64,000 nt of DNA from positions 5,465-69,464 of IMG/VR virus record IMGVR_UViG_3300033074_001364. The stretch is one strand, 5' to 3'. Numbering within the stretch: the first letter of the stretch is position 1; every line of letters starts with the position of its first letter. The notes under the pieces were generated by a model. The model worked only from the letters and a program-made list of their open reading frames with translations, had not been told where the DNA came from and made no database searches. This DNA comes from a virus. Taxonomy: Duplodnaviria > Caudoviricetes. This document shows, piece after piece, positions 35,606-40,991 of the stretch. A program made the translations under genes and the position numbers.

Positions 35606-36748
35606 TTACGCCACCACGCGCAGCAGGTTCGATGGGATGCGGTTGACGACCGAGTTCGGCAGCGATCCATTCCAGTGGGCCGTCGCCTCATACTCGGCGT
35701 AAATCTTCCCCGTGTTGCCCGCGTAGTCGATGACGTAGGCGCCGAACTCCTGTAGGGCTCGGGCGACGATCTTGCCGGTGGCCGTCAGGGCGCGGTTCTG
35801 TGAATCTCTCACCTGGTCGAGGTTGACGGACGGATCGAGGAAGATGCGGCTGCCCTCTGGGATACCACCATTGGTGGGTCCATCGCTCTTGGTGGCTGGA
35901 TACACATGCTGCGGTCCGACGCTGTTGCAGCCCACCACGAGAGCATGGGGGATGCGACCCGCTGCAATCTCATGCGGGCGGATCAGGCCAGCGTAGTAGG
36001 GGACACCAGCGCCACGAGAGGCGTACACGGTCGGGTGCGTGGTGCCCTTGCCGTACATGCCGCCGACCAGCAGGGATCCGTTCGATGCCGTGGCGGTGCG
36101 TGCTGTTCGGTTGACGTTACGGACCTGCCACAGGTCGAGCTCGTCGCCGTTCGTCAGGTCAACAGCGATGATCTGACCATCACTGCCAGCCGATACGGTG
36201 AAGTCCGATGGAAGCCGAACGGTGAATCGCTTGTTCGGAGCATCGCTGGCAGAGGTGCCCTTGTAGACCTTGGCTGCACCCGTGCAGGTGATCGTCCAGA
36301 CCGGCGCAGACTCGTTGGCGAAGTAGACCGGGTAGCTGTACTGGGTGGGGTCGATGCTGACGAAGGCGATGCGATTGATCCACTCAGCAGAGCGTGAATG
36401 CACCTGTGGGTTGGCAGGTAGTGGCGTGTTCCATGGAGAGTCAGCGCTGTAGGGGCGCGACAGTGGGTTCCATGAGGTGGGGTCTGGCTCTGGCTCAGGC
36501 TGTGGATCAGGCTCGGGATCCGGCTCAGGTTCTGGTTCCGGGTCAGGTTCGGGGTCTGGCTCGGGGCCAGGCTCAGACTCTAGGAGATTCGCCAAGCGGT
36601 GGAGGAACGCCACCATCTGGGCACGCGACGTCGGTTGGTCGGGCGCAAACTTCCCGCCGCCTACTCCGAACGTGATGCCGTTCTCGGCTGCCCACTCAAT
36701 GTCGTCGTAGAAGGGATGATTAAGGGGGACATCGCTGAAGCGGGTCAT
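35606..36748 (-). CDS. SLH-domain protein with (EPDP)n linker and uncharacterised C-terminal domain
   Basis: FSDVPLNHPFYDDIEWAAENGIT.G....F.P...TSRAQM. Confidence 0.8.
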   Translation of the reverse strand: MTRFSDVPLNHPFYDDIEWAAENGITFGVGGGKFAPDQPTSRAQMVAFLHRLANLLESEPGPEPDPEPDPEPEPEPDPEPDPQPEPEPDPTSWNPLSRPYSADSPWNTPLPANPQVHSRSAEWINRIAFVSIDPTQYSYPVYFANESAPVWTITCTGAAKVYKGTSASDAPNKRFTVRLPSDFTVSAGSDGQIIAVDLTNGDELDLWQVRNVNRTARTATASNGSLLVGGMYGKGTTHPTVYASRGAGVPYYAGLIRPHEIAAGRIPHALVVGCNSVGPQHVYPATKSDGPTNGGIPEGSRIFLDPSVNLDQVRDSQNRALTATGKIVARALQEFGAYVIDYAGNTGKIYAEYEATAHWNGSLPNSVVNRIPSNLLRVVA

Positions 36749-36762
36749 GGGTCCTCGAAGGT

Positions 36763-36837
36763 TGGAGCCGCCAGGGTGAATCGAACACCCGCTGAGGCCA
36801 TACAAAGGGCTCTGTCTGCCACTAACGATATGGCGGC
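36763..36837 (-). tRNA. tRNA-Thr(TGT)
   Basis: Cloverleaf, loop TT-TGT-AT, one stem mismatch, CCA. Confidence 0.75.
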
Positions 36838-36863
36838 TTGGAATAGTCCCCCTAGATTTGAAT

Positions 36864-36938
36864 TGGAGGTCCAGGTCCGATTCGAACGGACGTGACTGCG
36901 TTACGACGGCAGCATCCTAGCCACTAGATGACTAGACC
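36864..36938 (-). tRNA. tRNA-Thr(CGT)
   Basis: Cloverleaf, loop GT-CGT-AA; body lacks typical C2-G71. Confidence 0.7.
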
Positions 36939-36939
36939 T

Positions 36940-37014
36940 TGGTACCCAATGACAGAATCGAACTGCCACCTACTGGATGTAAGCCAGTCGTCCTATCCGT
37001 TAGACGAATCGGGC
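36940..37014 (-). tRNA. tRNA-Val(TAC)
   Basis: Cloverleaf, CCA. Confidence 0.9.
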
Positions 37015-37182
37015 AGGGTGGGCACGCGTGGGCCGAAGCCAGACCGTGCCGCTGTCCGTTGCGGGAGCGCAGTACTACGCGTAACCCCGGACCGGAATGA
37101 ATGGGAGAGTGCTACATGGCATTGCTTTCAGAGAACCGCCCGAGGCGGCACGCCTTCGCATTGCTCCTTATGCGTGATGAAA

Positions 37183-37256
37183 TGGAGCCATCGTCCATAA
37201 TCGAAATGGAACCTTCCCCTTACCACAGGGATGCTCGGCCTTCGAGCTACGACGGC
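37183..37256 (-). tRNA. tRNA-Thr(GGT)
   Basis: Cloverleaf, CCA. Confidence 0.88.
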
Positions 37257-37261
37257 TTGTG

Positions 37262-37337
37262 TGGTCTGAGTGGAGCGGCTCGAACGCCCGACAGCCGCGC
37301 CCCAAACGCGGTGCTCTACCTACTGAGCTACACTCAG
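37262..37337 (-). tRNA. tRNA-Pro(TGG)
   Basis: Cloverleaf, CCA. Confidence 0.9.
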
Positions 37338-37348
37338 ACGACTAATAC

Positions 37349-37436
37349 TGGCGGATGGACGAGGATTCGAACCTCGGTAGGCTTGCGCCCGCAATCCTTA
37401 GCAGGGATGCCCGATTGGCCGCTCCGGCACCCATCC
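37349..37436 (-). tRNA. tRNA-Ser(GCT)
   Basis: Long variable arm, G73, CCA. Confidence 0.92.
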
Positions 37437-37437
37437 G

Positions 37438-37513
37438 TGGAGAGCCTGGTCGGGATCGAACCGACGTCCAGCTGCTTAAAAGGCAGCCGCTCTGCCGCTG
37501 AGCTTACAGGCCC
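37438..37513 (-). tRNA. tRNA-Lys(TTT)
   Basis: Cloverleaf, CCA. Confidence 0.9.
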
Positions 37514-37541
37514 TTGATAAGGCGGCAAACTTCTGTATAAG

Positions 37542-37615
37542 TGGAGCACTCTCTCGGATTCGAACCGAGGTGACGTGGGTTGCAACCACGCCGCTGGCCG
37601 CTCGCGCAAGAGTGC
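37542..37615 (-). tRNA. tRNA-Cys(GCA)
   Basis: Cloverleaf, U73, CCA. Confidence 0.92.
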
Positions 37616-37616
37616 T

Positions 37617-37691
37617 TGGTCAGGGGCATCGGCTATGATCCGATCCTGTCAGCGCCACAAGCTGAAGTGCTGCCACCTACACCAGCCCCTA
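37617..37691 (-). tRNA. tRNA-His(GTG), atypical
   Basis: Cloverleaf; T-loop ATCATAG, A73, no encoded G-1. Confidence 0.75.
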
Positions 37692-37761
37692 GTTGGAAGC
37701 GAGCCGCCGGTACTCTCACCTTTCAACCGGCATCGTTCGCCCTGTGAGGGGACTCGCTGTG

Positions 37762-37810
37762 TGCTGGATATGGTCGGCAACAAGTGCGTGACTGCCGACC
37801 ATATCCAGCA
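37762..37810. repeat. Perfect 18-bp inverted repeat
   Basis: tgctggatatggtcggca-N13-tgccgaccatatccagca. Confidence 0.92.
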
Positions 37811-37836
37811 ATACCGTAGCGTTTCCGGTACGGTTG

Positions 37837-37909
37837 TGGCACCGCAGACAGGAGTCGGACCTGTAGCAAGTCGTTTTGGAGACGACCGCGCTCCCACGAG
37901 CTCGGCGGC
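37837..37909 (-). tRNA. tRNA-Trp(CCA)
   Basis: Loop CT-CCA-AA, G73, short D-loop, T-loop TCCGACT. Confidence 0.8.
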
Positions 37910-37916
37910 ATGGATG

Positions 37917-37993
37917 TGGTCGCCCTCCTGCGATTCGAACGCAGAACCTCCTCCTCTTGAGGGAGTCGCCTCTACCAGTTGGGCTAGAGGGCG
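37917..37993 (-). tRNA. tRNA-Leu(CAA), short variable loop
   Basis: Cloverleaf, CCA. Confidence 0.85.
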
Positions 37994-38039
37994 TAGACGG
38001 GCCGGGGAATCCTCGCGAGGGCTGTCCGACCCGTATGAA

Positions 38040-38115
38040 TGGTGGTCCCCCAGAGATTCGAACTCTGACTGGCACGCTCCTAAGGCGTGTGCCTCTACCG
38101 TTGGGCTAGAGAACC
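38040..38115 (-). tRNA. tRNA-Leu(TAG), short variable loop
   Basis: Cloverleaf, CCA. Confidence 0.88.
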
Positions 38116-38121
38116 AGGTGT

Positions 38122-38196
38122 TGGTGGAGCTAAGTGGATTCGAACCACCGACCCGCTGCTTGCAAAGCAGCCGCTCTCCCACTGAGCTACAGCCCC
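38122..38196 (-). tRNA. tRNA-Ala(TGC)
   Basis: Cloverleaf, G3-U70, CCA. Confidence 0.95.
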
Positions 38197-38205
38197 ATGA
38201 ATGAT

Positions 38206-38281
38206 TGGCGGAACCGAAGGGATTTGAACCCTCGACCTTCAGCGTGACAAGCTGACATGCTGACCGCTACACCACGGCTCC
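38206..38281 (-). tRNA. tRNA-Asp(GTC)
   Basis: Cloverleaf, G73, CCA. Confidence 0.95.
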
Positions 38282-38348
38282 GCGGTGTCGTCTGTTGCGC
38301 CAAACCCTACAAATCTGTGAGTTGGCAGCGAACAAGTGACACTGATGT

Positions 38349-38420
38349 TGGCGCCTCCCGAAGGATTCGAACCCTCAATTGCGGCTTAGAACACCGCTAC
38401 CGCTCCTATCGGAGAGAGGC
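38349..38420 (-). tRNA. tRNA-Arg(TCT)
   Basis: Loop GT-TCT-AA, reduced D-arm, CCA. Confidence 0.75.
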
Positions 38421-38428
38421 AGAATGAG

Positions 38429-38506
38429 TGGAGCGGCAGGTGGGATTCGAACCCACGAGAAGCCTGCTTGGAAGGCAGGTGCCATAGGCCGCTAGGCGAC
38501 TACCGC
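38429..38506 (-). tRNA. tRNA-Gly(TCC)
   Basis: Cloverleaf, U73, CCA. Confidence 0.93.
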
Positions 38507-38507
38507 T

Positions 38508-38559
38508 TGGTGGAGCGTCCCCGGACTCTTACCGGATTGGCTAGCATCATGCTCGCCCC
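38508..38559 (-). ncRNA. 52-nt tRNA-like mini-RNA with Ala-type acceptor end
   Basis: GGGGCG/CGCTCC stem with G3-U70, A73, CCA, T-like arm, no anticodon arm. Confidence 0.45.
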
Positions 38560-38563
38560 AAGT

Positions 38564-38641
38564 TGGTACGCTCGGGGTGACTCGAACACCCGACGCGCAG
38601 GTTCGAAGCCTGCCGCTCTGGATCCACTGAGCTACGAGCGT
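38564..38641 (-). tRNA. tRNA-Arg(TCG)
   Basis: Cloverleaf, CCA. Confidence 0.92.
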
Positions 38642-38728
38642 GTGGTCGGTCGGGGACTCACCGCCCTACTGGCGGGCCTCGCCCCTCCCGATTGCGTACG
38701 CGCCCCACGAGGCTAAGGGCAGATGGAA

Positions 38729-38805
38729 TGGTACCGCCTGCCGGATTCGAACCGGCGATCTCCGGGGTGAAAACCCGGCGCCTTGGGCCACTTGGCTAAG
38801 GCGGC
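38729..38805 (-). tRNA. tRNA-Glu(TTC)
   Basis: Cloverleaf, CCA. Confidence 0.92.
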
Positions 38806-38964
38806 ATGTGGGGCAGAGCGGAGTAAGGGAATGCACCGGGCGTATACACCACGGGTCCTACTTCAAGCGATTACCCCAGAGTCGGCGGACGAAGGCCCTT
38901 GCCCGCCAGTCCACGTCTTGGCCTACTACCTAACCTGCGAACAGGGGGTGCCGTGGACCGTAGT

Positions 38965-39039
38965 TGGTGCCCTGACAGGGGGTCGAACCCTGGTCGACGC
39001 CGTGAGAAGGCGCCATCCTGACCACTAGACGATCAAGGC
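38965..39039 (-). tRNA. tRNA-Glu(CTC)
   Basis: Cloverleaf, CCA. Confidence 0.92.
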
Positions 39040-39044
39040 GATGT

Positions 39045-39120
39045 TGGTGAGCCTGGTAGGGATTGAACCTACGACCTTGGGCTTAAGAGGCCCCTGCTGC
39101 TGCCGCTGAGCTACAGGCCC
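39045..39120 (-). tRNA. tRNA-Lys(CTT)
   Basis: Cloverleaf, CCA. Confidence 0.92.
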
Positions 39121-39121
39121 G

Positions 39122-39198
39122 TGGCTGCCACCCAAGGAATCGAACCTCGAAGCACCTGATTCAAAGTCAGGCCGCTGTACCTATTTGCGTAGGTGGCA
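39122..39198 (-). tRNA. tRNA-Gln(TTG)
   Basis: U1-A72, G73, CCA. Confidence 0.92.
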
Positions 39199-39298
39199 AT
39201 GTTCTGTGTCGTATACATACCCTGTGAGAGTATAACGACGTTACACTTCATACGATGTGTAAGCGTTGCTATCACTGACTGCAAGAGATGCTTACAGA

Positions 39299-39383
39299 TG
39301 GTGCCTTAGGTGGGATTCGAACCCACGAACCCAGAGGGGCCACGTTTACAGCGTGGCTGCTTTGGCCGCTTGCATACCTCGGC
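39299..39383 (-). tRNA. tRNA-Tyr(GTA)
   Basis: Long variable arm, CCA. Confidence 0.92.
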
Positions 39384-39449
39384 ACTGTGTAGTCGAGCCC
39401 TTGCAAGAGTTACCCGGACAGTTTGGTCCCGTCCAGTTGCTCGACATGA

Positions 39450-39538
39450 TGGTGGTGTAGGGTCCGGTTCGAACGGATACTCGCACTGTCCTATCAGCTG
39501 GTGACGGCGCTTTCACGCGTACTGTTCGCGTCCCTACA
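39450..39538 (-). ncRNA. Atypical tRNA-like element
   Basis: TGTAGGG/CCCTACA acceptor, TTCGAAC T-loop, D-like hairpin, irregular long central arm, CCACCA end. Confidence 0.5.
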
Positions 39539-39682
39539 TGATGAATAACGATGGGCGCCGTCCTTACCACTTTCACTGGATCACGGTCGCCCACCGGAGA
39601 CTCAGCACCGAGGTCTAACACTTCACCCGAAGGTGGCGGCGTTATAGGGATCCCACGACGCCGCTCTCGATGCCTACATAAA

Positions 39683-39758
39683 TGGTGCCGCCCGCTGGTT
39701 ACGATCCAGCGACCTCCGCGGTTTCAGCGCGGCGCTCTACCAGCTGAGCTAGAGCGGC
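39683..39758 (-). tRNA. tRNA-Phe(GAA)
   Basis: Cloverleaf; T-loop ATCGTAA. Confidence 0.9.
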
Positions 39759-39821
39759 AAGTACGGGGCTGGTGCTAACGAGGCCACTTACTCGGCTCCA
39801 CGATCAGCCGACACCCCTGAT

Positions 39822-39905
39822 TGGCTGGCGCGGGAGGACTTGAACCTCCAAGCCTTACGGCGGCTGGTTAACAGCCAGCTGCGGCTACCATTTCGCCACA
39901 CGCCA
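39822..39905 (-). tRNA. tRNA-Asn(GTT) with long variable arm
   Basis: Loop CT-GTT-AA, G73, variable arm GCC-GTAA-GGC. Confidence 0.85.
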
Positions 39906-39987
39906 ACGCTAATTCCCCAGTTGCCCAGATCCATTACGGAGGACTGCTCCTACTGGTAATCGCCGGACCCGCCACAGTCGGGATAAT

Positions 39988-40064
39988 TGGTAGCCCCCGT
40001 CCGACTCGAACGGACGACCCTCACCATATCAGAGTGATGCTCTAACCAACTGAGCTAGAGGGCT
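39988..40064 (-). tRNA. tRNA-Ile(GAT)
   Basis: Cloverleaf, CCA. Confidence 0.93.
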
Positions 40065-40174
40065 ACGACTGGATACAGCTTCCCGGCGCATCAAGCCGCT
40101 GCCGCGTTATCCCATGACTCTGCGCGCATCCCCACGGGATTAATACCGGGCCACCTACCTCTGCATCCATGATT

Positions 40175-40244
40175 TGGTTGCGGGTTGGGGGTACGATCCC
40201 CACGCCATGAGGTTATGAGCCTCTGGAGGCACCATGCACCCGCG
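40175..40244 (-). tRNA. tRNA-Met(CAT), initiator-like C1:A72
   Basis: 70 nt, reduced D-arm, T-loop ATCGTAC, lacks the three G-C pairs of the initiator anticodon stem. Confidence 0.75.
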
Positions 40245-40631
40245 ATGTTGTGATTCCGCCTACACAATGCAGGATCACAAGCGCTACTTGCTACCCCTGC
40301 ATCACCACTCCAACGCTAGTAGCGAACTAGCAGCCTAACCCCGGCGGAATCGTATGAATCGGATCGGAGTACCACCATTCCGAGGCGCTTCAGGGAGCAG
40401 TGCGCGACCGCTTACGCCGGCTAATAAATAGGTGGTGTTTGCCTGGACACGCGCTTGTTACTGATGCGTTCCCGAAGGACCATCGAGTACGTCGATCCAG
40501 AGCGATGGTTGACATTCCACCGCCGTCCTCCCTCGTCGGCGTCACCCGACTTCCTAACTGCTTCCACCATGGCGAAGATGGCTCCCTCACAGGTTTGATC
40601 TCTGAGGATTCAGTATTCACCACCGTATGAA
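40245..40631 (-). ncRNA. Candidate structured RNA(s) in the longest tRNA spacer
   Basis: Closing helices GGTGGTG/CACCACC and GATTCCGCC/GGCGGAATC plus internal hairpins. Confidence 0.45.
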
Positions 40632-40706
40632 TGGAGCGGGCGCCGGGAGTCGAACCCGAACGTCAACCTTGGCAAGGTTGCAGGCAGACCGTTACATCAC
40701 ACCCGC
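40632..40706 (-). tRNA. tRNA-Gly(GCC)
   Basis: Cloverleaf, U73, CCA. Confidence 0.9.
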
Positions 40707-40805
40707 TAGTGCCGGTTACGGATCCGGCTTGGCTTCTAGCCGGTTCGCGTGTCCGACATCACCAACGTGCTGCCCCCGTCATACCATGACGGAAACAGGA
40801 ATGAT

Positions 40806-40882
40806 TGGCTGCACAGGAACGAGTCGAACGTTCAAGCACCTGCTTCAGAGGCAAGCGGCTCTACCAATTTGCCTACTGTGCA
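40806..40882 (-). tRNA. tRNA-Gln(CTG)
   Basis: U1-A72, G73, CCA. Confidence 0.92.
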
Positions 40883-40902
40883 GCGAGTACAGATTGTTAA
40901 GG

Positions 40903-40991
40903 TGGCGGAGCGAGAGTCGAGTCGAACGCTCAAGGCCCTAGGGCTCGTCCGGGTTCAAACCGGGTGCCGTCGCCAATCGGCTTGCCGCTCC
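40903..40991 (-). tRNA. tRNA-Ser(TGA)
   Basis: Long variable arm, G73, bulged T-stem, CCA. Confidence 0.85.

Follow-up and report, generated by a model that had tools for sequence, protein, structure and literature searches.

Introduction

The locus described here raises the question of what a 52-nt sequence, which ends like a tRNA and carries the marks of an alanine acceptor stem but has no anticodon arm, is doing in one slot of a 28-gene tRNA cluster of a soil-type phage. The cluster lies in the window, by which we mean the whole stretch of 64,000 nucleotides that was analysed and which is part of a 69-kb IMG/VR viral contig (GC ~61%), a phage record that is 59% complete. Siphovirus-type genes in the window include those for a portal, a tape measure, a DnaB-like helicase and an M23 peptidase, and the homologues of the last suggest Actinomycetota or Chloroflexota (Limnocylindria) as possible host groups.

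Minihelices carrying a G3.U70 pair have, since 1989, been the textbook proof that AlaRS reads the acceptor stem only. To our knowledge, alanine minihelices have so far been laboratory constructs, and the tmRNA of phage DS6A that consists of the tRNA-like domain (TLD) only is the one published natural phage case. A first-pass annotation of the present locus had read the 52-nt element as an alanine-marked mini-RNA, and had offered mimicry of the tmRNA TLD or a degenerate tRNA-Ala among its possible explanations.

We hypothesise that the 52-nt element is a real, lineage-specific gene for a functional, non-decoding tRNA mimic of the alanine type. We put this forward tentatively, as having a little less than an even chance of being right, and we set out below the features that suggest it, together with the alternative readings with which it has to compete.

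The element within the tRNA array

The coordinates of the array, of the element and of its parts are given in Table 1. Most of the ARAGORN calls are supported by Rfam, and the CCA is encoded (as NCCA) in all 28 of the array's tRNAs, as it is in the 52-nt element. Neither a sigma-70-like promoter nor an intrinsic terminator was found inside the array (36763-40991), which fits a single long precursor transcript. The gap between tRNA-Arg(tcg) and tRNA-Gly(tcc) measures 57 nt and is made up of ACUU, the element and one A. The description of the element as flanked by these two tRNAs is thus borne out, since it stands as a gene-like unit in the array, 4 nt from the one and 1 nt from the other.

Table 1. 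Coordinates of the tRNA array, of the 52-nt element with its parts and of the neighbouring tRNA genes in the window.
Feature	Position	Strand	Remarks
tRNA array	36763..40991	minus	ARAGORN: 26 confident and 2 weak (relaxed threshold) tRNA genes
tRNA-Arg(tcg), CCA encoded	38564..38641	minus	upstream neighbour of the element; ARAGORN and Rfam
Leader ACUU, 4 nt, U at -1	38560..38563	minus	between the tRNA-Arg CCA and the element
Whole anticodon-less tRNA-like element, 52 nt	38508..38559	minus	sequence, fold
Acceptor-like stem, 5' strand GGGGCG (positions 1-6)	38554..38559	minus	pairs with 38512-38517
Hairpin 1: 4 bp AGCA/UGCU, UGA loop	38543..38553	minus	no linker to the acceptor stem; MFE and centroid
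Unpaired linker AGCCAA	38537..38542	minus	in place of the anticodon/variable region; fold
Hairpin 2, T-arm-like: 5-bp stem, 7-nt loop UAAGAGU	38520..38536	minus	fold
Two unpaired bases GA	38518..38519	minus	between hairpin 2 and the 3' acceptor strand; fold
3' acceptor strand CGCUCC (38512-38517), discriminator A (38511), encoded CCA (38508-38510)	38508..38517	minus	sequence, fold
tRNA-Gly(tcc)	38429..38506	minus	downstream neighbour, begins 1 nt past the element's CCA

Some members of the array depart from the ordinary. The genes for tRNA-Trp(cca) (37837-37909, minus strand) and tRNA-Ser(tga) (40903-40991, minus strand) appeared at relaxed ARAGORN thresholds or were weak in Rfam, where the pair scored 26.6 bits as tRNA and 29.7 bits as tRNA-Sec, and the ARAGORN calls Thr(ggt), Cys, His and Arg(tct) had no Rfam tRNA match; together these point to several unusual tRNAs in the array. 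No tRNA-Met was found in it except a very weak candidate at about 40175-40244, at the loosest ARAGORN setting. A motif resembling (A/T)TCAT(T/A)C recurs 3' of several of the tRNAs, for example as TTCATAC after Gly(gcc) and Leu(tag). The gene directly past the array (35606-36748, minus strand) encodes an SLH-domain protein with a linker rich in Pro, Glu and Asp, and its start is likely to be the ATG at 36748, not the TTG at 36805, which overlaps tRNA-Thr.

Fold of the element

On the minus strand the sequence from 38559 to 38508 reads exactly as the first-pass annotation had written it, and the fold drawn there is both the minimum-free-energy fold (-17.4 kcal/mol) and the centroid, which are identical. 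All 15 base pairs are intact. The acceptor-like stem, which includes G3.U70, has 6 bp and not 7, and the hairpin that stacks directly on it is hairpin 1; between hairpin 2 and the acceptor stem the GA bulge breaks a stack that is continuous in real tRNAs. In the fold there is therefore no unbroken acceptor/T-stem helix of some 12 bp with a 7-nt loop at its end (6 bp, a 2-nt bulge and 5 bp are found instead). In the length of the acceptor stem and in the interrupted stack it departs from the top half of a tRNA that the first-pass annotation had implied.

The loop of hairpin 2, UAAGAGU, keeps the equivalents of U54, R57 and A58 and lacks the UC (psi55-C56) that almost every tRNA of the array has in its T-loop. 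The residues kept are those that form a T-loop by themselves, and psi55 and C56 normally pair with a D-loop, which is absent from the 52-mer; this pattern may speak for a maintained RNA and against a fresh deletion product. There is no anticodon stem-loop (a 7-nt loop with U33) in the 52-mer, its sole 7-nt loop being UAAGAGU with A at the U33 position.

Alanine identity elements and kinship to the resident tRNA-Ala

The bacterial alanine identity set consists of A73, G2-C71, G3.U70 and G4-C69 (PMC9976931). The acceptor end of the 52-mer reads G1-C72, G2-C71, G3.U70 and G4-C69, followed by A73 and the encoded CCA, and so contains four out of four of these elements. The G3-U70, A73 and CCA that had been noted from the letters are therefore present, within a bacterial set that is complete.

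One of the 28 tRNAs of the array is a tRNA-Ala, and the 52-mer shares with this tRNA-Ala(tgc) its first 5 and last 9 bases, 14 identical terminal bases in all. At the 6:67 pair the two differ, the 52-mer having G-C and the resident tRNA-Ala(tgc) U-A, so that both sides have changed. This terminal identity, taken with the two-sided change, makes the 52-mer akin in kind to an acceptor stem of the tRNA-Ala type and sets it apart from a random hairpin. In a local similarity search no segment similar to the interior of the 52-mer was found in the window or in the relatives described below.

Departure from chance

The folding energy of the 52-mer is ordinary when compared with shuffles (z = -0.58). 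To assess the combination of its features, the 57-nt spacer was shuffled 200,000 times with its dinucleotides preserved. Of the shuffled sequences, 0.68% were closed across the spacer by a stem of 6 bp or more with NCCA behind it; 0.02% had G3.U70 and A73 as well, and in 5 (0.0025%) these features were joined by a 5-bp/7-nt-loop hairpin adjoining the 3' strand. The 52-nt element is not a chance hairpin.

Tests against tRNA and tmRNA models

ARAGORN did not call the 52-mer a tRNA in its standard, relaxed (-ps, -ps80) or mitochondrial modes, and the Rfam tRNA model RF00005 gave no match to it at E<=10, whether 6 kb or only 81 nt were searched. The Rfam tmRNA model RF00023 likewise gave no match in the 81-nt search, even at E<=10. 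As a positive control the TLD-only tmRNA of DS6A was located at JN698994 28478-28560, where the same tmRNA model aligns both ends of the RNA with 34.7 bits (E 7e-13). An attP-like 3' fragment of tRNA-Lys in DS6A, near 36383, was discarded as a candidate for the DS6A TLD.

At its acceptor end the 52-mer does carry what a tmRNA TLD carries (G3.U70, A73 and a CCA end), though on a stem of 6 bp and not 7. The unpaired D-loop with its GG..UCGAC motif and the UUCGA-type T-loop are both present in the DS6A alignment, and both are absent from the 52-mer. The suggestion that the element mimics the tmRNA TLD is thus not supported, given a model that is silent on the 52-mer and finds the DS6A control, and given the missing D-loop motif and canonical T-loop. 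No smpB gene was found in the 69-kb, 59%-complete phage record.

Search for homologues

Searches of GenBank phages with megablast and blastn, using either the region or the 52-mer alone, returned only the flanking tRNAs or nothing. In IMG/VR the pattern GGGGCG-N30-44-CGCTCCACCA matched 116 loci, all unrelated, with one of them near a tRNA and folding differently, and a structure-aware pattern had a single match, an ordinary tRNA-Ala. The pattern searches gave 69 chance matches in JGI metagenomes, all of them in coding regions or on the reverse strands of tRNAs, and three in GTDB genomes, all in coding regions. A covariance model built from the 52-mer (R1) was run on the window, where filters were off over the array, on the 69-kb record and on a 91-kb relative, and it matched no copy besides the 52-mer itself.

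Relatives of the phage were sought through its proteins. The portal and M23 proteins as queries found nothing in IMG/VR, and homologues of the SLH-domain protein and M23 peptidase came from unrelated phages in which there is no array. For the major tail protein 68 relatives at 48-79% identity were found, and contigs were taken from among these (L118-L126, L201 and L202). Only three of the fetched contigs (L121, L123 and L202, the last being the 91-kb relative) have a syntenic tRNA array with the same gene order and the Arg-Gly slot. They are distant, their orthologous tRNAs being about 65-70% identical to those of the window; the closest contigs, whose tail proteins are 76-79% identical, are short and do not extend as far as the slot.

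The gap between Arg(tcg) and Gly(tcc), 57 nt in the window, is 1 nt in L123, 6 nt in L121 and 687 nt in L202, and neither inspection of the slot nor the covariance model R1 revealed the 52-nt element in any of the three. The first-pass annotation had envisaged that homologues might turn out to be full tRNA-Ala genes, of which the element would be a deletion remnant; what the relatives have in the slot instead is 1 nt, 6 nt or an unrelated open reading frame. The latter, of about 200 amino acids, lies in the 687-nt insert of L202 (13886-14572, plus strand) and its first segment is hydrophobic and resembles a signal peptide. In this phage group the Arg(tcg)-Gly(tcc) slot seems to be a hot spot for insertions. 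The junction past the element, CCAA|GCGG, is the same as the Arg|Gly junction of L123, and the sequence would fit the insertion of a CCA-ended cassette at a CCA microhomology.

Within IMG/VR, JGI metagenomes, GTDB, GenBank phages and the three syntenic relatives, then, the 52-nt element is a singleton, and no homologue with stems preserved by compensatory changes was found in them.

Other CCA-ended small RNAs in these arrays

The arrays of this phage group hold further small RNAs that end in CCA. A conserved 50-nt hairpin ending in ACCA is found in L121 (5780-5829, plus strand) and in L123 (4271-4320, plus strand), 6 nt past one tRNA and 1 nt ahead of tRNA-Glu. It has an inner hairpin of 5 bp with a 7-nt loop, and the four differences between the two copies amount to two compensatory pair changes in this inner hairpin. 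Its being kept with compensatory changes indicates that small, CCA-ended RNAs other than tRNAs are maintained in this phage group, which counts in favour of the reading preferred here. The hairpin has no pattern match in IMG/VR and no homologue in the window, and the idea that the 52-mer is a diverged copy of it was rejected, as the covariance model R2 does not match the 52-mer.

In the window itself, an 85-nt tRNA-like element at 39453-39537 (minus strand), not called by ARAGORN, has an acceptor stem of 6-7 bp followed immediately by a hairpin, and further a T-loop that reads UUCGAAC, an A73 and a CCA; its centre is irregular, with no anticodon loop. At 37694-37758 (minus strand), 2 nt before tRNA-His, a 65-nt RNA forms a three-way junction with an 8-bp closing stem and a UCCA end; its architecture is like that of the 52-mer, and its R1 score is not significant (8.3 bits, E 0.4). 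Over the spacers of the array, a closed stem with NCCA was seen 11 times against 5.8 expected from shuffles, a marginal enrichment (P ~0.06).

Alternative readings

The notion of a chance hairpin in a GC-rich spacer seems to us scarcely credible. The energy z-score of -0.58 would suit it, as would the fact that loose versions of the pattern match many GC-rich coding regions, but the features come together in only 5 of 200,000 shuffles, the 14 terminal bases are those of the resident tRNA-Ala and the element exactly fills a tRNA slot. Mimicry of the tmRNA TLD, by which the element would bind SmpB and block trans-translation in the manner reported for the TLD-only RNA of DS6A, we regard as very improbable. 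The ends GGGGC...GCUCCACCA and the G3.U70 pair are common to the 52-mer and to tmRNA, and expression of the DS6A form in E. coli is stated to inhibit tmRNA (PMC4131195 and PMC11915505, citing Mao et al. 2009). Set against this are the Rfam tmRNA model, which matches the DS6A TLD and not the 52-mer at E<=10, and the want of both the unpaired ..UCGAC D-loop and the UUCGA-type T-loop. Moreover, on our reading of the sequence, a hairpin occupies the place where SmpB would dock.

A further alternative is that the element serves processing only: an acceptor-like hairpin would direct RNase P and the trimming of 3' ends in the interval from tRNA-Arg to tRNA-Gly, and the freed piece would have no role. 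The tight placement between two tRNAs and the mild enrichment of closed stems with NCCA in the spacers are consistent with this, and tRNA-like processing signals are known elsewhere, such as the t-elements of plant mitochondria. We nevertheless give it little probability, given that the relatives mature their Arg and Gly tRNAs from genes 1-6 nt apart with no such element, that both flanking tRNAs are already RNase P substrates, and that G3.U70, A73 and an encoded CCA are more than a cutting signal alone requires. The main rival to our reading, though rather unlikely, is decay: a gene of the tRNA-Ala type (or for a mini-tRNA) would once have stood in this slot and lost its central part, and what is left of it, inert, would still be co-transcribed and perhaps excised. 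Consistent with decay are the element's being a singleton in the collections searched, its absence from the slot in three relatives and the variability of that slot (1, 6, 57 and 687 nt), the presence of other aberrant pieces in the array (the 85-nt element and the weak Trp and Ser tRNAs), a fold no better than shuffles, the non-canonical T-loop and the shortened acceptor stem. Yet no residual similarity to a D, anticodon or T arm is left, while 15 of 15 pairs are intact and the CCA is kept, and a recent deletion should have left the canonical GTTCGA T-loop that nearly all neighbours have. The intact stems, the interior unlike that of a tRNA and the change on both sides of the 6:67 pair relative to the resident tRNA-Ala argue against a recent deletion derivative. 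A remnant would, by chance, also rarely be of the alanine type (1 in 28), which is the type that is charged from the acceptor stem alone.

A proposed non-decoding alanine acceptor mimic

The reading that we tentatively prefer is therefore that of a functional alanine-type mimic that does not decode. We infer that the element is transcribed, processed and charged and has a downstream role, in the following manner. It would be transcribed within the long transcript of the tRNA array, and its 5' end would be freed by RNase P, to which the U at -1, the G at +1 and the 3' ACCA would be suited. The 3' end would be set at the encoded CCA, once RNase P had cut at the next tRNA, 1 nt further on, and the one surplus base had been trimmed away. 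As the identity set of the acceptor stem is complete, the 52-mer is predicted to be chargeable with alanine, host AlaRS being the enzyme that would read the set and load it. With no anticodon arm it would be unable to read codons, and any effect would thus come from the acceptor end: the 52-mer may be a competitor or a decoy that engages proteins recognising the acceptor ends of tRNAs, or it may carry alanine outside the ribosome. We favour such a role, as acceptor-end competitor or decoy or as extra-ribosomal alanine donor, over tmRNA mimicry because the features of the TLD were tested for and are absent.

Counting against the preferred reading are the lack of a homologue, the absence of the element from the three syntenic relatives and the z-score of -0.58. 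In addition, the 6-bp stem and the 2-nt break in the stack make recognition by RNase P, EF-Tu and the CCA-adding enzyme less certain than for a textbook minihelix. Genes for FemAB, SmpB, a CCA-adding enzyme or an AlaRS editing-type (tRNA_SAD) domain were not found in the 59%-complete record. A bolder supposition is that the genome encodes here a natural alanine minihelix which is charged in vivo and works through its acceptor end, either by titrating host defence enzymes directed at the 3' ends or acceptor stems of tRNAs, or by supplying alanine to a non-ribosomal transferase; this more specific proposal we consider quite unlikely.

Should that proposal be true, the element would represent an undescribed class of acceptor-only tRNA mimics of phages, distinct from tmRNA. 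If it is charged, it would offer a handle on how phages interfere with the quality control of host translation and on how they counter tRNA-directed defences, and it would show what a minimal natural substrate for aminoacylation looks like.

Comparison with known systems

Non-tRNA RNAs within phage tRNA clusters have a precedent in RNAs C and D (species 1 and 2) of T4, which lie in the T4 tRNA cluster and are matured with the tRNAs. They are about 120-140 nt long, are not of the alanine type and have no sequence in common with the 52-mer; the analogy is a looser one.

A nearer case is the DS6A RNA, a TLD-only (CDS-less) tmRNA listed in the tmRNA Website as tmID 11587 (PMC4131195, PMC11915505). 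Like the 52-mer it is phage-encoded, small and non-decoding, with no anticodon, an acceptor stem beginning GGGGC..., G3.U70 and A73, and as an anticodon-less RNA of the alanine type it can be counted as a precedent for the reading that we prefer (PMC4131195, PMC11915505). The two differ in most other respects. The DS6A RNA measures about 80 nt. Its acceptor stem has 7 bp, its D-loop is unpaired and bears the tmRNA motif, and a P2 helix and a canonical T-loop, UUCGAUU, are present; its CCA is not encoded, and its gene lies by itself with protein genes on either side. The 52-mer, by contrast, has a 6-bp stem, a hairpin instead of the D-loop, the loop UAAGAGU and an encoded CCA, and lies inside a tRNA array.

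The other comparison is with the synthetic substrates, since AlaRS charges acceptor-stem minihelices (Francklyn and Schimmel 1989, as given in refs 110-111 of PMC9976931). Minihelix- and microhelix-Ala share with the 52-mer an acceptor stem with G3.U70 and A73-CCA, a T-arm-like hairpin and the lack of an anticodon. Synthetic minihelix-Ala is one coaxial hairpin of 12 bp, whereas the 52-mer is a natural gene whose product would fold as a three-way junction with an extra 4-bp hairpin, a 6-nt linker and a 2-nt bulge.

An alanine-marked, CCA-encoded RNA of 52 nt that fails the test for tmRNA suggests that there is a second type of phage mimic, and that phages may also use acceptor-only tRNA mimics not derived from tmRNA. 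With no sign of selection maintaining the 52-mer, a single copy is too little to carry this claim alone. In functional terms the closest analogue of the 52-mer is the synthetic minihelix-Ala, and the closest published object is the TLD-only tmRNA of DS6A.
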